64,000 bases of DNA from Ostreococcus lucimarinus (taxonomy: Eukaryota). This document shows, one piece after another, positions 53,105 to 59,860 of this stretch. How positions within the stretch are numbered: position 1 is the stretch's first letter; the number at the start of each line of letters is the position of its first letter. The stretch lies in NCBI GenBank assembly GCA_000092065.1, contig CP000594.1, one strand, 5' to 3'. A program made the translations under genes and the position numbers. Under the pieces are notes generated by a model that was given only the letters and a program-made list of their open reading frames with translations, was not told where the DNA came from and ran no database searches.

Positions 53105-54565
53105 ATGCACTCGCACGCGATGCGCGCGCGCGCGCCGCGCCCGCGCGCGAGCTCGCGCGCGTCGACGCTCGAAAGCGCGCGCCGAGGCCGATGCGACGGG
53201 ACGGGACGACGCGCGCTCGGACGCGTCGCGCGAAGCGCGAAGCGCGGCGACGGCGTCGCGACGCGCGCGCAGGGCGACGTCGACCTGCTGAATCACCTGG
53301 GAAAGAAGCGCGTGGTGATCACGGGGATGGGGGCGGTGACGGCGCACGGGGACGACGTGGATGAGATGTACGAAAAGCTGTGCCGAGGGGAGAGCGCGAT
53401 CGCGACGATCGATAAATGGGACACCGGAGAGATCGGAACGAAGTTCGCGGGGGAGATAAAAGCGTTCGATTGTGGGGATTATATGAATAAAAAGATGGCG
53501 CGCAGGGTGGATCCGTACATTGCGTACATGATCGTCGCGGCGAAGCGAGCGCTGGAGTCGGCAAAGGTGAACTGGAACGACGAGTCGGGGGAACATTACG
53601 TCGATAAAGCGTTGAGTGGATGTCTGATTGGTAGTGCGATGGGGGGGATGCAAACATTCGCGACGGCCACGGAGAATCTCGTGACGCAGGGACACAGAAA
53701 GATGAACCCGTTTTGCATTCCGTTTGCGATTACGAATATGGGAAGCGCGCTGACGGCGATGGATATTGGATTCATGGGGCCGAATTATTCGATCGCGTCC
53801 GCGTGTGCGACGGGCAACTTTTGCATCTTGAATAGCATCATGCACATTCAAAACGGAGAGGCGAACTTGATGCTCGCCGGGGCGAGCGACGCGGCTGTCA
53901 TTCCCATCGGTATGGCGGGTTTCTCCGCGGCGAAGGCGTTGAGCACGCGCAACGATGACCCCGCGGCGGCTTCGAGACCGTGGGACGCGAACCGAGACGG
54001 ATTCGTTATGGGTGAAGGTGCGGGCGTTCTCGTACTCGAATCTTTGGAAAGCGCATTGGCGCGCGGTGCGCCCATCGTAGCTGAAGTTTTGGGCGGGTTT
54101 GCGACGTGTGACGCTCACCACATGACTGAGCCTCGACCGGATGGCGTGGGCGTCAACTTTGCCATCGACAAGGCGCTCGAGATGACTGGCGTGAAGGCGG
54201 AAGATGTCAACTACATCAACGCTCACGCCACGTCCACGCCGGCCGGCGATATGGCGGAACTCCGTGTGTTGCAAAAGAAGTTCAAGGCGTCGGGGGCGAA
54301 GATTAATAGCACCAAGAGCTTGATCGGGCACTTGCTCGGCGCAGCTTCCGCCGTCGAAGCCGTCGTATGCATCAAAGCCATCACTAGCGGCGAAGTTCAC
54401 CCCAACAAGAACCTCGAAACCCCAGATGAAGGCGTTGACACCTCGATGTTGGTTGGCACAACGAGAGAAAAGCTCGACGTGAAGGTTGCTTTGTCCAATT
54501 CTTTTGGCTTTGGCGGGCATAACTCGGCGGTCCTGTTCGCTCCGTACAAGCCTAAACGCTCGTAA
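53105..54565 (+). CDS. KAS2: 3-oxoacyl-[acyl-carrier-protein] synthase II (KAS II / FabF-type) with a plastid-type presequence.
   Basis: KRVVITGMGAVTAHG...YMIVAAKRALESA...SIASACATGNFCILNSIMHI (active-site Cys)...NAHATSTPAGD...KSLIGHLLGAASAVEAV (His-His)...SNSFGFGGHNSAVLF. The start is uncertain (first ATG 53105). Confidence 0.85.
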   Translation: MHSHAMRARAPRPRASSRASTLESARRGRCDGTGRRALGRVARSAKRGDGVATRAQGDVDLLNHLGKKRVVITGMGAVTAHGDDVDEMYEKLCRGESAIATIDKWDTGEIGTKFAGEIKAFDCGDYMNKKMARRVDPYIAYMIVAAKRALESAKVNWNDESGEHYVDKALSGCLIGSAMGGMQTFATATENLVTQGHRKMNPFCIPFAITNMGSALTAMDIGFMGPNYSIASACATGNFCILNSIMHIQNGEANLMLAGASDAAVIPIGMAGFSAAKALSTRNDDPAAASRPWDANRDGFVMGEGAGVLVLESLESALARGAPIVAEVLGGFATCDAHHMTEPRPDGVGVNFAIDKALEMTGVKAEDVNYINAHATSTPAGDMAELRVLQKKFKASGAKINSTKSLIGHLLGAASAVEAVVCIKAITSGEVHPNKNLETPDEGVDTSMLVGTTREKLDVKVALSNSFGFGGHNSAVLFAPYKPKRS

Positions 54566-54662: not shown

Positions 54663-57600
54663 CTAAAAAATCAAATCAAGACCAAATACGGCGCTGATGA
54701 CAAATAATACACCGAAGGCGAGCGCGACGGCGCTCGATCCACGAGCGATATAGCTCACAAACTTGGGATTATTCTTCTCCAACGCTGCCGTACCCGCACC
54801 AATGCAGTACGTGTACGTCCCCATGGCGATAATGGTTCCGATGAAGAACGTCGCCAAAAAAGAAATCGCCTCGACGCGAGGGAGCGCCAGGGCAGGTAAA
54901 AGCAGAAACAATGAATCCGGTTGTAATCCATGGATGGTGCCAGTAATATACGTCCATGAGATGAAGCTGCTATCGCGCTTCGCGGGCACATCGCTCCCAT
55001 GCGAGTGCGAATGCGAGTGTGAGTGTGAGTGTGAATGTGAGTGCGAGTGACCGCCCATGCTTTCCCAAAAGCCAATAGCGCCAATAATAATGAGCGTCAA
55101 ACCGACGATTCCTTGTCCAAACTGACCGATAACTTCCAAGTTGAGCGGTAATTTATCCCTCAAAGCGATGAAAATACATCCAAATAAAATTTGACCCGTG
55201 TTATGCCCGAGCCCCCAAAGCGCGCCCATCAACGCGTTTTGCGCTCTGCTCGGTCCCACTGTCAGTGGCGTGAGTGCCGCTAAGTGGTCTGGCCCCGTGA
55301 GCGTGTGCAAGCAACCGGCTAATAGACCAGCCCATGCAGACTTAAACGCCGTGATTACGCTCATCCAGTGTGCGACGTGCAAATGTTTGACCCAAATGGC
55401 AATCGCTTCGCTGCACACCGAGTACGCTGCGCCCAAGCAACAAAACACGGTGAACGTCGTGAGGGCCACGGTAGTACTCTTGGACAACGGCTGTCGCCCG
55501 AACGTGACAAGCAAACGCACTGAGTTCATCGCCACCATGAGGGTCGCGCCTTCGTGCAGCAATACCGCCAACCATAGCGGAAACGCGCCGAAGAGAGCGG
55601 GAATAGCTGACCCCAAGATTGATACCACGGCGAGTGCGATGTTTTGTCGTAAAGTGCGTCGCGTGCGCTCGGCGATGGAAAACAGCTCTGGTAATTGAGA
55701 GATGCCTCCTTCGTCTTTAGTGAGCAACAGTACATCCGCCGCACTCGCGGCGGCATCGCTCGGCGTCGACGCGATGGCGACGCCGACATCCGCGGCGGCG
55801 AGCGCTGGGGCATCGTTGATACCATCGCCAACCATGGCCACGCGAGGATATTGCTTGGATTTCACGCGCTCTCGCATTGATTCAACCAGTGCAAGCTTTT
55901 GAGACGGAGTCAATCCGGCGTGTACGTCTTCCGGTTTCAACTTGATCTCCTCAGCCATGGCTATGGCGCTCGTCTTGTTGTCGCCCGTGAGCATGGCCAA
56001 CTCCATACCCGTCGAGTCGCTCGCCACCTCCCACCATCTCCGTCGGCACTTGCCAGTACGCAGGGACTCGATGGCATCGGGCGCCTGCAAATTAAGCGTA
56101 TCACTAAACCTAAACAGCGCCGGGCTTTCGCCCTCAATCGCGAGCACAGAGAGCACTTCGCCCTCTTGCGCGATGACCTCGGCGGAGCATTCCGCAGCGC
56201 CAGTGTTACACAGCTCGAGCGCAAACTCGGAGCTACCGAATCGCGCACGCTTGCCGTCGATCGTGCCTTCCACACCACTCCCCGCGATGACTTTGTAATC
56301 CGTCACGGGACCGACGTCTGGCAAAATGATCCCCCGCGCCGCTTGCGTCACCGCGGCGGCAATCGGGTGGGACGAACCGCGTTCGAGGCTCAGCGCGTAC
56401 GCCAGAGCCTTGACTGACGCGCTCGGAGCAGTGTCGTGTTGCGCACCGTCTTCAAATTGTGTGATATTCGTGCAGCTCATTTGCCCCGTCGTGATGGTTC
56501 CCGTCTTATCGAGCGCCACCGCGCCGACTTCGGCCAAAGCGTCGAGAGTCAAGCCGCCTCGAATGAGCACACCTCGCCGAGCCATGGCCCCGATGGCCGC
56601 CACGTACACGAGCGGCGACATCAACAATGCACACGGCGCTGCGGAGGATAAAAACGCAAAGCTGCGATACATGGCACCGCCGCGACCCAAAAATGGAATC
56701 CCGAGCACCATCGGCGCCGCGGCCATGGTAATAAAGGTGATGGCCAATATCGCCTTACTGTAGCGGTCTCCTATGCTATCGATCAATCGTGAGACTTTCG
56801 GACGACGCCGCTGCGCAGCCTCGGTGAGTCGCGCGATTCGCGCCGGTGTGCTCTCCTCGCTCGATCTCAAGCTCTTCACCACGAGCACGCCGTCGGTGTT
56901 CATCGCGCCGGCGGGAATCTCATCGCCGTATCTCTTCATCACCGGCAAAGCCTCACCGGTGATGTGTTGAATGCTCACTAACGCGCTGCCGTGGACAACC
57001 ATACCATCCAACGGCACTTGCTGTCCAGCCTTGACGAAAATCATCGTCCCAACGTCGACGTCCGCCGCGGGCATCTCTCGGAGCGTCGTCAAATCCGGCG
57101 TCCCATCGGCGAGCAACTGCACGACGTCCGCCGTCGTGGGCACCGTGCCCCACAACGCCTTCAAATCCCCCCGAGCGTGCAGCGTCAATCGATCCTCCAC
57201 GAAGTGCGCCAGGGCGAAGAGCACCAAGAGCAGCGCGCCCTCCATCGCGCACCCCAAGAGCACGGTGCCGAACACGGCCAACGTCGTGAGCACGTGAATG
57301 TTCACGTTCCCCACCGCGAGCTCGTACGTCACGTCCACAAACTCGGGCGTCCCCGCCAACACGTAAACCAGAATCGTGCACACCCGACTGACGTTCGCCG
57401 CCATCGTCGTCTCCACCAATCCGCCGCCGCCGACGTGCGTCGCCACGTGCGCCGCCCCCGCGACGAGAAACAGCGCCCACGACACCACCGCCACCGCCGC
57501 GTTCCCGCGCAGGAAATCCGCCACCGCGTGCAAACCAGTGGCGTTAAACATCGCATCCAGCGCCCTCTCCGTGCGTCCGCGCGGTGCAAACTCCCCGGAG

Positions 57601-58055
57601 CTCGTCGCCGCCATCATCCCCGCCTGCGACACGAACTCGTCCTCGTCCGCGCTCATCGCGCCGTCCATCGCCCGCGCGCCCCGCGCCTTACCGCACGAGT
57701 GCCCACAACACGAGTGAAATTCCCCACCGTGCGCCCGCGCGCGCTCGAAACCGCGTCGACCGCCTTCCCCGCGCGTCCGCGTCCCGCGTCCCGCGTCCAC
57801 CCTCGCGAACCTCCCCCCCCGCGCCCCCACGACGCGCGCGCGCTCGCGATTCGACGCCGCGCGCGCGCTCGACGCGTCCATCCGCGCGCTCGCGCGCGTC
57901 CGGTCGCATCTGTCTCGCGCGCGCGTCCCCGTCGCCGCCCCCGTCGCCGTCGCCGCGCGCGCGACAACGATGCGCGTCGCCGTCGTCGCGCGTCCGCGCG
58001 CGCGCGGCGCGCCCGCGAGCGCGCGCGGCGAGGGCGCGATCGCGTGCGCGCGCAT
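54663..58055 (-). CDS. HMA1: P1B-type heavy-metal ATPase (HMA1-like, 'APC' motif). It is fused, via a (HS)8 linker, to a C-terminal HupE/UreJ-like Ni/Co permease domain. N-terminal presequence and a His/Cys-rich metal-binding stretch.
   Basis: ATPase motifs: SSAAPCALLMSP (TM6 xPC), DKTGTITTG, SSHPIA, MVGDGINDAPALAAADVGVA. N-terminal HGGEFHSCCGHSCG. After the last ATPase TM, with no stop, comes GCLHTLTGPDHLAALTPL...GHNTGQ... then GGHSHSHSHSHSHSHSHSHG, then GTIHGLQPDSLFLLLPALA... These are two HupE/UreJ-like repeats (H-x-L-x-G-PDH signature). Single ORF of 1130 aa. Confidence 0.8.
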   Translation of the reverse strand: MRAHAIAPSPRALAGAPRARGRATTATRIVVARAATATGAATGTRARDRCDRTRASARMDASSARAASNRERARVVGARGGRFARVDAGRGTRTRGEGGRRGFERARAHGGEFHSCCGHSCGKARGARAMDGAMSADEDEFVSQAGMMAATSSGEFAPRGRTERALDAMFNATGLHAVADFLRGNAAVAVVSWALFLVAGAAHVATHVGGGGLVETTMAANVSRVCTILVYVLAGTPEFVDVTYELAVGNVNIHVLTTLAVFGTVLLGCAMEGALLLVLFALAHFVEDRLTLHARGDLKALWGTVPTTADVVQLLADGTPDLTTLREMPAADVDVGTMIFVKAGQQVPLDGMVVHGSALVSIQHITGEALPVMKRYGDEIPAGAMNTDGVLVVKSLRSSEESTPARIARLTEAAQRRRPKVSRLIDSIGDRYSKAILAITFITMAAAPMVLGIPFLGRGGAMYRSFAFLSSAAPCALLMSPLVYVAAIGAMARRGVLIRGGLTLDALAEVGAVALDKTGTITTGQMSCTNITQFEDGAQHDTAPSASVKALAYALSLERGSSHPIAAAVTQAARGIILPDVGPVTDYKVIAGSGVEGTIDGKRARFGSSEFALELCNTGAAECSAEVIAQEGEVLSVLAIEGESPALFRFSDTLNLQAPDAIESLRTGKCRRRWWEVASDSTGMELAMLTGDNKTSAIAMAEEIKLKPEDVHAGLTPSQKLALVESMRERVKSKQYPRVAMVGDGINDAPALAAADVGVAIASTPSDAAASAADVLLLTKDEGGISQLPELFSIAERTRRTLRQNIALAVVSILGSAIPALFGAFPLWLAVLLHEGATLMVAMNSVRLLVTFGRQPLSKSTTVALTTFTVFCCLGAAYSVCSEAIAIWVKHLHVAHWMSVITAFKSAWAGLLAGCLHTLTGPDHLAALTPLTVGPSRAQNALMGALWGLGHNTGQILFGCIFIALRDKLPLNLEVIGQFGQGIVGLTLIIIGAIGFWESMGGHSHSHSHSHSHSHSHSHGSDVPAKRDSSFISWTYITGTIHGLQPDSLFLLLPALALPRVEAISFLATFFIGTIIAMGTYTYCIGAGTAALEKNNPKFVSYIARGSSAVALAFGVLFVISAVFGLDLIF
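55001..55050 (-). repeat. Imperfect hexanucleotide repeat (CACTCG/CACATT)n on the coding strand, encoding the (His-Ser)8 linker in the ATPase-permease fusion.
   Basis: The plus strand reads gcgagtgcgaatgcgagtgtgagtgtgagtgtgaatgtgagtgcgagtga. Confidence 0.75.
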
Positions 58056-58477: not shown

Positions 58478-59860
58478 ATGTTGACGACGGCGATGGCGTC
58501 GTTTTCGAGCGAGGCGCTTCGCGCGTGGCGCGCGGGGGACGAGGAAGACGCGCGCGAACGCGCGGCGTTGATCGCGGCGAGCTCGGGGGCGGAGTGCGGC
58601 GCGAATGGGGCGCGGGGGGGGGGCGACGACGGCGGCGCGAGGGCGAGCGCGCGAGGACGACGCGCGCTCGCGGCGGCGGCGTGCGTCGCGGCGCTGGTGG
58701 GCTTGGGGGCGTGCGCGCGCGCGCACGGTGCGGAGATGAGCGGGCGCGAGCGTGGGGTGCGCGCGGCGGCGCTCGGTGGGGAGGCGCGTTCGGGCGGGAC
58801 GCGGCGGCGCGGCGCGCCGAGACGCGCCGCGCCGAGACGCGCCGCGGCCGCCGCGGCCGCCGTCGGGCAGAGCGAAGCCGAGAGCGGTCTAGTGGTGTTT
58901 AATGAAGCGCCGGAGTATACGTGCGCGAAACGGAATAAAGCTTTGAGAGAGGCTGCTTACGCCGCGAGGATGGGGTCGCCGTGGACGCCGGGGTGTCACT
59001 CAAAGCTAGGCGAGGAGGGGTGCACGAAGATTTCAGACGCCGGCGCGCGACTGGCGGCGTTGAGCGATCACGTGTACGTCATCTGCATGAAGTGCGATAA
59101 AATAGTGCTCCCATTGCAGTGGGCGGGGAAGGTGACGACGGTGCACGGCGCCGACATCGATCCGTGCTACGGGCGCGCGGCCGCGGATCACTGGCACAAG
59201 GCGTCGATGTCGCACGTGCACGCGCTCCTCGACGCCGTCAAGTACCAGTACAAGACGGTGACCATCGTCGAAGAAGATGCGATAACGGTTTCACCCGATC
59301 GCGTGGACGCCAACGCGGGGTTCGACATCGACGGCTTAGAGCACGCGATCAAGAATGACTCGAGTTGGAACACCGTTCGCGTGGGTTACAGACCATTCTT
59401 TTTCGAGCAACAGTCTGCAAACGTCCCAGTCGGTTCGACACCGCATTACGCCTGCCCGCTGGCGTGTAAGTGCCACGAAACGACGGCGAAAAACGCGTGC
59501 ATCGTGCGCGAGAATGGATGTGACATGCGAAGCAGCGACTTTTACATGATTCGCATGTCGCAGTCGCGCGCCATCAGAAAAACCGTCGGCGCGGGGAGCA
59601 CGATCGACATGGAAGCTTTACGCAACGTGCATCATCAAATGTACGTGTTGCCGCAGCTCAGCTACCAAGCGAACCTCGATCGCACGCGCGAGCAGCAAGT
59701 GAATATGGCTCGACGATTCAGAGACTTGTGCTTTGTGCCGAAAACTCCGTCCGACGAAGTCGTGCAAGACGCGGCGACGGCGGAGCGCGAGTACGAAGAG
59801 CGAGTGAGCACCATCGAGTCCGCGGACTCGACGCGATATATCACCAAACCACAACGATAA
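58478..59860 (+). CDS. Hypothetical membrane-anchored protein, possibly a glycosyltransferase-like type-II protein; function unknown.
   Basis: Hydrophobic anchor (LAAAACVAALVGLGACA) after a low-complexity N-terminus. The ~330-aa C-terminal region has protein-like composition and many Cys. Start uncertain. Confidence 0.4.
   Translation: MLTTAMASFSSEALRAWRAGDEEDARERAALIAASSGAECGANGARGGGDDGGARASARGRRALAAAACVAALVGLGACARAHGAEMSGRERGVRAAALGGEARSGGTRRRGAPRRAAPRRAAAAAAAVGQSEAESGLVVFNEAPEYTCAKRNKALREAAYAARMGSPWTPGCHSKLGEEGCTKISDAGARLAALSDHVYVICMKCDKIVLPLQWAGKVTTVHGADIDPCYGRAAADHWHKASMSHVHALLDAVKYQYKTVTIVEEDAITVSPDRVDANAGFDIDGLEHAIKNDSSWNTVRVGYRPFFFEQQSANVPVGSTPHYACPLACKCHETTAKNACIVRENGCDMRSSDFYMIRMSQSRAIRKTVGAGSTIDMEALRNVHHQMYVLPQLSYQANLDRTREQQVNMARRFRDLCFVPKTPSDEVVQDAATAEREYEERVSTIESADSTRYITKPQR

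Follow-up and report, generated by a model that had tools for sequence, protein, structure and literature searches.

A gene of Ostreococcus lucimarinus fuses an HMA1-type P1B-4 ATPase to a NiCo/CGF-type membrane module

P1B-type ATPases take up metal from the membrane face on which their ATP-binding domains lie. In plants, AtHMA1 resides in the inner envelope of the chloroplast (PMC3355532; PMC3922081); it has been described as an exporter (PMC3922081), and its transport direction is under dispute (PMC5948301). Another inner-envelope protein, At-NiCo, interacts with PIC1 in the yeast two-hybrid system and was placed together with PIC1 in a model of Fe uptake (PMC4780311), while a role in Fe sensing or release has also been proposed for NiCo, its uptake-only role being questioned by Pham et al. 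(PMC7214486). CGF1 and CGF2, the latter being NiCo itself, are located in the chloroplast, the integrity of which depends on them (PMC7168881). These plant proteins are encoded separately, and a literature search returned no paper on a fusion of HMA1 with NiCo/CGF.

We analysed a window of 64,000 nucleotides from contig CP000594.1 of O. lucimarinus, in which positions 54663–58055 on the minus strand, the strand of all features given below, form a complete coding sequence of 1130 amino acids including the stop codon. The encoded protein consists, in this order, of a presequence, a P1B-4 ATPase, an adaptor helix, and a NiCo/CGF-type module. The frame is single and uninterrupted, free of stops and frameshifts, and the core of the earlier note holds: an HMA1-like P1B pump of the APC variant is fused to a two-repeat, metal-permease-like module with a His-rich segment. 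The length of an ORF is no proof of a gene here, because GC-rich DNA also yields long spurious frames, such as one of 639 aa on the strand opposite the neighbouring KAS gene. The ORF was accepted as real on account of homology along its whole length, comprising the ATPase HMMs, the C-module homologs (the best reaching E = 7.5e-98), and full-length orthologs that share 81–83% identity with the 1130-aa protein. The genomic orthologs are single exons syntenic with KAS, with lengths of 959 aa (L020) and 1139 aa (L021 and L022). The RefSeq model for O. lucimarinus (632 aa, 'partial') contains the ATPase core only and misses the C-module fusion, and several metagenome gene models end or split at the His-Ser tract, which we attribute to frameshifts at this repeat. 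The earlier note knew no such architecture from plant HMA1/HMA6 or bacterial CopA/ZntA/CzcP and advised a search for prasinophyte orthologs; that search found the same fusion in other prasinophyte-grade algae, across which, and in Prasinoderma, it is kept. Both modules occur in the same order in 69 of 240 matches, and about 12 clusters (50% identity) align without a break across the junction, which is spanned by the transcriptome ORFs P0110, P0166, P0178/P0337, and P0419/P0420. With carriers in Pyramimonas, Cymbomonas, and Prasinoderma, the fusion spans two green-plant phyla. The C-module is standalone in core chlorophytes and in land plants/streptophytes, and its bacterial relatives adjoin a P1B pump in 1 of 19 loci.

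The ATPase core (residues 186–850; 55506–57500) comprises helices MA, MB, and M1–M6 together with the A, P, and N domains, and AF2 places its eight transmembrane helices at residues 186–207, 216–248, 253–266, 270–303, 420–451, 461–493, 784–821, and 827–850. The profile check that the earlier note had advised gave PF00122 at 2e-42 and PF00702 at 1.7e-16; TIGR01525 scored 460.6 bits (cutoff 346.25, E = 8.8e-138) and TIGR01512 379.5 bits (cutoff 313.5), and PDB matches included ZntA (4umv, 4.6e-58) and sCoaT (7qbz, 1.4e-55). The P-type catalytic motifs TGE (residue 366), DKTGT (phosphorylation motif, residues 516–520; 56496–56510), HP (563; the dipeptide of the N domain that is specific to P1B pumps), and GDGINDAP (743) are all invariant in alignment A2. 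The same holds for H834, E835, G836, and T838 of the M6 motif HEGAT (residues 834–838; 55542–55556), a P1B-4 signature that aligns with HEGST of sCoaT, where ZntA (P1B-2) has DTGAT. In M4, APC (residues 473–475; 56631–56639) replaces the SPC of canonical P1B-4 pumps; APC was found in 168 of 172 fused proteins and SPC in 29 unfused HEGxT pumps. Since PMC3922081 already documents APC in Ostreococcus, Micromonas, and Coccomyxa as a variant of the IB-4 clade, we read it as a sub-clade variant that gives no ground for exclusion from P1B-4. The ATPase part is thus assigned as a putative ATP-driven divalent-metal pump of the P1B-4 subgroup, and because green-plant species each carry one P1B-4 gene (PMC3922081), it is taken to be the HMA1 ortholog. 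With AtHMA1 and other P1B-4 pumps such as sCoaT it shares the full set of catalytic motifs, HEGxT in M6, xPC in M4, eight transmembrane helices, the lack of an HMA-fold metal-binding domain, and an N-terminus containing His and Cys. Unlike AtHMA1, which has 819 aa and no C-module, the Ostreococcus protein continues for about 280 C-terminal residues that contain seven more transmembrane helices.

The N-terminal extension (residues 1–156; 57588–58055) is rich in Arg, Ala, and Thr and predicted to be disordered (pLDDT <50 over residues 1–156), and its first 60 residues include 13 Arg, 18 Ala, 8 Thr, and no Glu. It probably represents a plastid presequence with a metal-binding motif, HSCCGHSC (residues 114–121; 57693–57716), which is a candidate N-terminal metal-binding site with the counterparts HSCGHSH, CCNHSH, CHGHSH, or HGHSH in fused orthologs. 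Comparison with P0122 revealed weak conservation of residues 1–130 (33% identity over 91%), and the true start codon could be M1, M59, or M130.

The pump and the C-module are joined by residues 851–895 (55371–55505), which contain a conserved TFGRQPLSKS and the adaptor helix TM0, a single hydrophobic helix with a di-Cys that spans residues 859–889 in the full-length AF2 model and 9–40 in the model of the C-module. A spacer of 40–153 aa with one hydrophobic helix is present in every fused ortholog, and connector identity is 77% within Ostreococcus and 0–27% between genera. In these models the extra transmembrane helix TM0 is the real connector. The (His-Ser)8 tract, previously proposed as the linker between pump and permease, is not that linker, as it lies inside the C-module, where it separates TM3 from TM4 about 150 aa past the last ATPase helix.

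The C-module, extending over approximately residues 896–1124, has a 3+3 arrangement of transmembrane helices. Its first half (TM1–TM3, residues 896–1000; 55056–55370), supported by invariant columns, AF2, and homologs, carries the mid-membrane residues H917, D923, and H924 (LHTLTGPDH) and H951 (WGLGH); the second half (TM4–TM6, residues 1026–1130; 54666–54980), supported by invariant columns and AF2, carries H1042, Q1045, P1046, and D1047 (IHGLQPD) and LPALALP. Columns D73, H74, and H101 of the first half and Q195, P196, and D197 of the second are invariant in alignment A1. The motifs GPDHLAAL (at 921; GLQPDS at 1043), WGxGHxxGQ, GLQPD, and LPALALP are all present, with columns invariant across 32 sequences. 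The AF2 model of the C-module (pLDDT 81, pTM 0.72) shows 1+3+3 helices, with TM1 broken at GPDH and TM4 at QPD, and we take the invariant His, Asp, and Gln at these breaks as a putative mid-membrane metal site. In the full-length model (pTM 0.62) the C-module reaches a pLDDT of only 48–81, and no defined inter-module interface is seen.

Of 728 homologs of the C-module, those bearing a name are CGF1/2, 'UreH-like TM', 'nickel transporter', and 'zebra-necrosis' proteins; the CGF, 'UreH-like', and 'nickel transporter' proteins among them align with 42–47% identity, 80–86% coverage, and E values of about 1e-50 to 1e-54. NiCo/CGF2 (At2g16800), CGF1 (At4g35080), and rice ZN (zebra-necrosis) are about 45% identical to the module over 80% of its length and share with it the motifs LHTLxGPDHLAAL, LWGxGHxxGQ, HGLQPD, and LPALALP, and a layout in which a hydrophobic segment precedes the 3+3 helices and the central loop is variable. 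In contrast to the Ostreococcus module, the plant NiCo/CGF proteins stand alone and bring a transit peptide of their own, the place of which is taken by the ATPase in Ostreococcus, and their central loop is acidic and contains Cys (e.g. ALENGECDVSVY), whereas the Ostreococcus loop is His-rich. Judged by homology and motifs, the C-module is a member of the plant NiCo/CGF ('UreH-like TM', PF13386) family, assigned to the LysE superfamily. PF13386 itself (DsbD_2; InterPro 'UreH-like TM domain') does not match the C-module at E<=10, while 19 of 32 aligned homologs match it (best 2.4e-8); the coverage of this clade by the HMM seems poor. In the RcnA/NicO proteins (PF03824), six transmembrane helices form a 3+3 layout; the cytoplasmic loop at the centre is rich in His, and TM1 and TM4 carry His/Asp motifs. 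The 3+3 layout is shared, and some members of the C-module clusters are automatically annotated as 'RcnA', but PF03824 matches neither the Ostreococcus protein nor any of the 32 homologs (E<=1), and the kinship would be at superfamily level at most.

The central loop of the C-module (residues 1001–1025; 54981–55055) is disordered (pLDDT <50) and contains the (His-Ser)8 tract HSHSHSHSHSHSHSHS (residues 1003–1018; 55002–55049). The repeat, previously called perfect, is so in the protein; in the DNA it is an imperfect hexanucleotide repeat built from CACTCG, CACTCA, CATTCA, and CATTCG, for which TRF gives a period of 6, 8.3 copies, and 86% matches. In agreement with the suggestion that slippage could alter its length, near-identical sequences differ in His-Ser length, with both in-frame and frameshift variants. 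The loop varies in length and composition across the family, and the His-rich form is confined to a Mamiellales-like sub-clade; other fused lineages have 0–1 His at this place, indicating that the His loop is not essential to coupling.

The protein is most likely located in the plastid inner envelope, because the land-plant homologs of both halves (AtHMA1; AtNiCo/CGF2 and CGF1) reside there; the plastid-envelope location previously suggested was judged plausible from these homologs and the composition of the presequence. Counting the helices from the cis end of M6 gives four more crossings (TM0, TM1, TM2, and TM3), from which we infer that the His-rich central loop would lie on the same face as the ATP-binding domains of the pump. 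The positive-inside count fits this topology only when the long central loop is counted in, since K+R without the loop amount to about 4.0 cis versus 4.3 trans. Taking these features together, we lean towards one bipartite divalent-metal transporter of the plastid envelope with 15 transmembrane helices, composed of a pump and a NiCo/CGF module that captures or senses metal. Both parts would act on one pool of divalent metal (Fe2+, Co2+, Ni2+, and Zn2+ are candidates), and the NiCo/CGF module, helped by its His loop and by the Cys/His motif of the N-terminus, would capture or sense the metal at the entry side of the pump. The C-module may then hand the metal to the pump, gate the pump, or offer a second low-energy pathway, resulting in a self-contained unit of metal release and homeostasis. 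Transport by plant NiCo/CGF proteins is itself a putative function, which we count against this reading. The same goes for the lack of a defined interface in the full-length model, the restriction of the His-rich loop to one sub-clade, the rarity of P1B pumps beside the bacterial relatives of the C-module, and the dispute over the transport direction of HMA1.

A possible but clearly weaker alternative is that the two modules form a pump-leak or proofreading pair, in which the C-module works independently as a secondary carrier and transports metal against the direction of the pump. It could import, for example, Fe2+ or Mn2+ with low selectivity while the ATPase expels metals that are in excess or wrong, such as Zn2+, Co2+, Ni2+, or Cd2+, the fusion merely fixing a 1:1 stoichiometry and co-localisation. 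The complete and highly conserved 6-TM core of the C-module, with its polar mid-membrane residues, looks like that of a working carrier; the module is standalone in core chlorophytes and streptophytes, and AF2 gives no tight interface between the modules. The opposing directions correspond to the placement of NiCo in an Fe-uptake model with PIC1 (PMC4780311) and the description of HMA1 as an exporter (PMC3922081), but the direction is putative for both modules and the uptake-only role of NiCo is doubted by Pham et al. (PMC7214486). Moreover, M6 is followed by a conserved tether (TFGRQPLSKS, then TM0) so short that it holds the modules close, closer than co-localisation would need.

The proposal that the C-module transports nothing and serves as a membrane-anchored regulatory or metal-buffering domain that tunes the pump, comparable to His/Cys-rich tails of P1B ATPases, is unlikely. 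The N-terminal Cys/His motif and the His loop do look like the metal-binding extensions that regulate P1B pumps, and the variable length of the loop would suit a low-complexity regulatory element, but conservation peaks in the transmembrane core (55–93% identity) instead of the loop (11–83%), the polar mid-membrane residues are invariant, and the loop lacks His in many fused lineages.

HupE/UreJ proteins are encoded by bacterial accessory genes of hydrogenase and urease, and the earlier note had identified the C-terminal part as a permease of this type. We regard it as improbable that the C-module is such a Ni/Co uptake permease within a dedicated Ni/Co(/Zn) module that supplies, for example, nickel enzymes. 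PF04955 does not match the C-terminal 279–280 aa, for which the earlier note had named the lack of a HupE/UreJ HMM hit as refuting, or the whole protein at E<=10, and the NCBIfam search was empty; close homologs are the plastid NiCo/CGF proteins of plants, a different clade in which 19 of 32 members match PF13386. The HTLTGPDH of TM1, presumably fitting the HupE/UreJ signature HPxxGxDH, does contain H-x5-D-H (H917-T-L-T-G-P-D923-H924) where the first helix breaks, but NiCo/CGF proteins have this motif as well, so that it cannot separate the families. PF04955 is also weakly matched by 4 of 32 family members (best 0.0028), and some metagenome members are automatically annotated as 'HupE' or 'RcnA'. 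HupE/UreJ would be at most a remote relative sharing H-x5-D-H. The evidence named for dedicated Ni/Co handling consists of family names, the Ni/Co specificity of clade members being putative, and we did not retain this claim.

It is very improbable that the C-module acts as a thiol-disulfide electron transporter of the CcdA/DsbD kind, supplying reducing power and moving no metal. The Pfam name of PF13386 is 'Cytochrome c biogenesis protein transmembrane region', and Foldseek returned CcdA (5vkv), but this likeness of fold (E 0.58, TM 0.37) is below significance, the breaks of TM1 and TM4 carry Asp/His and Gln/Asp in place of Cys, and the sole nearby Cys (AGCLHT) varies between C, V, and A, no Cys being invariant. 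An artefact, whether two adjacent in-frame genes or an assembly chimera giving two separate proteins, is hardly credible despite the ATPase-only RefSeq model and the metagenome models split or shortened at the His-Ser tract, which frameshifts at the repeat can explain, given the identical order and junction in the divergent clusters of two phyla, the transcriptome ORFs crossing that junction, the absence of a stop in all orthologs, and the conserved hydrophobic helix encoded by the spacer.

The bipartite metal transporter that we favour joins, in early-branching green algae, two proteins that are separate in the chloroplast envelope of land plants, which suggests that they work together. On the strength of the fusion, a partnership of HMA1 with NiCo/CGF is predicted for the chloroplasts of land plants as well.

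Analysis of the minus-strand ORF at 54663-58055 indicated that it is uninterrupted, as the earlier note had claimed, and that its 1130-aa product joins a P-type pump to a C-terminal permease module (C-module, aa ~896-1124). The GC content of the window DNA is 62%, and since such DNA also gives long spurious ORFs, the length of the ORF is no evidence by itself; the reality of the gene rests on full-length homology. All motifs on which the fusion had been proposed were found (APC at 473, DKTGT at 516, HP at 563, and GDGINDAP at 743), and TGE (366), HEGAT (834), GPDHLAAL (921), GLQPDS (1043), and (HS)8 (1003-1018) were also located.

The N-terminal half matches PF00122 and PF00702 in Pfam and exceeds the cutoffs of TIGR01525 and TIGR01512 in NCBIfam, and its 8-TM core was modelled confidently by AlphaFold. 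The nearest solved structures are ZntA (4umv, 4.6e-58) and the P1B-4 pump sCoaT (7qbz, 1.4e-55). Comparison of the M6 motifs revealed that LLHEGATLMVAMNSVRLL in the pump is equivalent to LVHEGSTLVVVANALRLL in sCoaT, whereas ZntA carries LADTGAT at this position, which assigns the N-terminal half, on sequence grounds, to the P1B-4 (HMA1-group) pumps. M4 reads APC instead of SPC, a variant published earlier for Ostreococcus, Micromonas, and Coccomyxa (Hanikenne & Baurain 2014, PMC3922081). Among the fused proteins, M4 carries APC in 168, TPC in one, no detectable motif in three, and SPC in none; SPC is the M4 motif of unfused HEGxT pumps, and every seemingly "unfused" APC protein is a fragment or a truncated model. 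As a strict rule, "APC implies fused" was rejected, because the IB-4 pump of Coccomyxa is reported to have APC (PMC3922081) yet NiCo homologs stand alone there (P0654, P0656, and P0664); APC may thus outlast or predate the fused state. A separate retrieved protein, P0195 (EukProt scaffold3.g6718.t1, 1148 aa), has an HMA1-like pump of the SPC type together with a precomputed match to PF00459 (inositol monophosphatase) and is either another fusion or a merged gene model.

The C-module had been assigned to HupE/UreJ, and the earlier note itself had made this identity depend on an HMM match in the C-terminal part. At E ≤ 10, Pfam and NCBIfam give no match to the final 279-280 aa (the last 279 aa searched alone gave nothing relevant), so that by this standard the assignment fails. 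A homology search instead retrieved 728 proteins, of which those with names are CGF1/2, "UreH-like TM", "nickel transporter", and "zebra-necrosis" proteins at about 45% identity (E ~1e-50). In an alignment of 32 members of this NiCo/CGF family, 19 match PF13386 (best 2.4e-8), and PF04955 is matched weakly by only four (best 0.0028). The alignment of these 32 sequences contains the invariant motifs LHTLxGPDHLAAL, LWGxGHxxGQ, TGxxHGLQPD, and LPALALP. In the AlphaFold model of the C-module (pLDDT 81, pTM 0.72), a leading helix is followed by 3+3 helices, with breaks in TM1 and TM4 falling exactly at GPDH and QPD and with a disordered central loop. No solved structure related to the C-module by sequence or fold was found, and a CcdA/DsbD identity is very unlikely, as the defining Cys pair is missing from the C-module. 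The Arabidopsis members are CGF1 (At4g35080) and CGF2 (At2g16800), which are needed for chloroplast integrity (PMC7168881); At2g16800 has also been described as "NiCo", a chloroplast inner-envelope protein that interacts with PIC1 in yeast two-hybrid assays (PMC4780311, PMC7214486). In four other proteins, P0457 (801 aa), P0459 (670 aa), P0476 (628 aa), and P0472 (528 aa, Botryococcus), the NiCo/CGF module begins at about residue 150-560 and no recognised Pfam domain lies upstream of it; they are possibly further fusions, or else gene models that were merged.

The fusion recurs in early-branching lineages of green algae. Both modules occur in the same order in 69 of 240 retrieved proteins, and when the junction segment served as the query of an exhaustive search, about a dozen 50%-identity clusters aligned unbroken over the junction. 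Junction-spanning transcriptome ORFs are P0110 and P0166 (MMETSP), P0178/P0337 (Pyramimonas parkeae), and P0419/P0420, and genomic orthologs of 959 and 1139 aa are each encoded by one ORF, at loci with GC contents of 68% and 50%. Among the carriers with a species name are Cymbomonas tetramitiformis ("HMA1 variant 2") and Prasinoderma coloniale; the phylum of the latter branched off before the Chlorophyta-Streptophyta split (PMC7455551). The surroundings of the gene are kept as well. Downstream, a beta-ketoacyl synthase gene (53105-54565, plus strand; PF00109 and PF02801) is convergent with the fused gene, with 97 bp between the stop codons, and upstream lies a divergent 460-aa ORF (58478-59860, plus strand) without a Pfam hit; the ketoacyl-synthase gene also adjoins the genomic orthologs, and together with a ~460-aa gene it flanks the fused gene in the genomic loci L020-L022.

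The exact 1130-aa product is absent from a collection of 15 billion proteins. Its 99%-identical cluster includes the O. lucimarinus protein XP_001421458.1 (P0241; 632 aa, "P-ATPase family transporter: cadmium ion, partial"), which covers the ATPase core only and ends just past …NSVRLL. Because this model omits a ~250-aa N-terminal extension and the entire 280-aa permease module, RefSeq under-calls the gene, and surveys that use its annotation will undercount NiCo homologs in Mamiellales. Residues 1-156 are rich in Arg, Ala, and Thr and are disordered, as judged from AlphaFold and composition. Within this otherwise disordered extension, the Cys/His motif HSCCGHSC (aa 114-121; window 57693-57716, minus strand) is a candidate N-terminal metal-binding site with the counterparts HSCGHSH, CCNHSH, CHGHSH, and HGHSH in fused orthologs, a recurrence that argues for a translation start upstream of the motif.

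Analysis of the junction revealed that M6 is followed by a short TFGRQPLSKS stretch and a single hydrophobic helix, TM0 (aa 859-889), which leads into the C-module. A spacer of 40-153 aa with one hydrophobic helix is present in every fused ortholog, and TM0 identity is 77% within Ostreococcus and 0-27% between genera, as against 42-94% in the flanking modules. This pattern marks the spacer as a coding adaptor that sets topology and speaks against read-through. TM0 also contains a di-Cys (FTVFCCLGAAY; aa ~871-875, window ~55430-55445), and its counterparts ACCxGG and LCCLGG occur in Mamiellales-like orthologs only and are missing from more distant fused lineages.

The His-Ser tract had been described as a perfect repeat that links pump and permease. 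It actually lies inside the C-module, between its helices 3 and 4, and its DNA (55002-55049) is an imperfect hexamer repeat (CACTCG, CACTCA, CATTCA, and CATTCG) for which TRF reports 86% matches. Because M6 ends on the cis side, the membrane face of the ATP-binding domains of the pump, and TM0, TM1, TM2, and TM3 make four crossings, helix counting places the His-rich loop probably on this same side. The positive-inside count gave K+R values of 8.2 versus 4.4, a bias that comes wholly from the long central loop, and about 4.0 versus 4.3 when the loop is excluded, so that it does not confirm this placement independently. A His-rich loop is found only in a Mamiellales-like sub-clade, where loops of 36-131 aa contain 8-24 His; in other fused lineages and in land plants, the loop has 0-3 His. 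Of the suggested slippage, the length variation is borne out: near-identical sequences differ in tract length, and some also in frame, which could reflect real slippage alleles or assembly error. One His-Ser unit distinguishes loops of 36 and 38 aa among sequences at least 90% identical, and four ENA metagenome-assembly models frameshift within the tract and lose TM4-6; the repeat is thus unstable in nature, in assemblies, or both. The frameshifted tails read …HSHSHSTLTLTLAFALAWERCAREAR followed by a stop or …THTHTRIRTRMGAM…, the latter matching the alternative-frame ORF at 54755-55084 of the window. The proteins in this comparison were P0121, P0242, P0244, P0245, P0251, and P0263.

The architecture, the family identities of the modules, their conserved polar mid-membrane residues, and the conservation of the fusion are established. 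By analogy with the plant homologs of both modules, the protein would be located in the plastid inner envelope, and we infer that the modules are functionally coupled. We favour a bipartite divalent-metal unit, in which the NiCo/CGF module would capture, sense, or conduct metal at the entry side of the P1B-4 pump and would work together with it. This reading fits the proposal that NiCo has a role in sensing or releasing Fe, beyond uptake alone (PMC7214486), and it also fits HMA1 having been described as an exporter (PMC3922081). Its chief competitor is a pump-leak pair, whose modules would move metal in opposite directions. Against tight coupling stand the lack of a universal His loop and the full-length AlphaFold model, which has no confident inter-module interface; its C-module confidence falls to 48-81 with a pTM of 0.62, so no packing of the modules can be claimed. 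Bacterial neighbourhoods are uninformative on coupling, as a C-module relative lies near a P1B pump in only one of 19 loci (L006). In that locus (L006:3301-9655, a Verrucomicrobiales MAG), genes for the ATPase, an AI-2E family transporter, the permease relative, and apolipoprotein N-acyltransferase (Lnt) follow one another in this order in a tightly packed co-directional cluster, with the AI-2E gene between pump and permease relative, which is not convincing as support for coupling.

NiCo/CGF proteins are standalone in core chlorophytes (Tetraselmis, Picochlorum, Chlorella, Chlamydomonas, Volvox, Coccomyxa, and others) and in streptophytes. In a neighbor-joining tree, the fused C-modules are set apart from both standalone clades; being midpoint-rooted and without support values, the tree is silent on fusion-first versus fission-first. 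In the same tree, the C-modules of two Cymbomonas tetramitiformis proteins, the fused P0165 (932 aa) and the standalone NiCo/CGF-like P0032 (386 aa), are sisters; the gene may have been duplicated or split by fission recently, or a gene model may have been divided.

The fusion is not mentioned in the literature retrieved, including PMC3355532, PMC3922081, and PMC5948301, although an earlier description may exist; both module families and the APC variant are already known, and fused sequences sit in public databases. Both modules are plastid-envelope proteins whose roles stay unsettled: the transport direction of HMA1 is disputed (PMC5948301), as is its substrate, and NiCo/CGF is tied to PIC1 only by yeast two-hybrid. 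Conservation of a fusion over deep branches of the green algae is a classic "Rosetta stone" argument for joint action, and this link between HMA1 and NiCo/CGF is the main value of the finding. It leads to cheap tests in Arabidopsis and in transformable Ostreococcus, and the fusion fixes how the modules are placed relative to each other, so that it can help to establish the orientation of both proteins in the envelope. From its presence in Prasinodermophyta and prasinophyte-grade Chlorophyta, one may speculate, although this is less likely than not, that the fusion is ancestral to green plants, that streptophytes and core chlorophytes later separated its halves, and that land-plant HMA1 and NiCo/CGF, as the two parts of one ancestral machine, still form a physical complex in the inner envelope of the chloroplast. 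If so, the uncharacterised essential CGF1 and CGF2 would gain a molecular role, and the fixed topology of the fusion would limit which orientation and transport direction, both disputed, are possible for HMA1.
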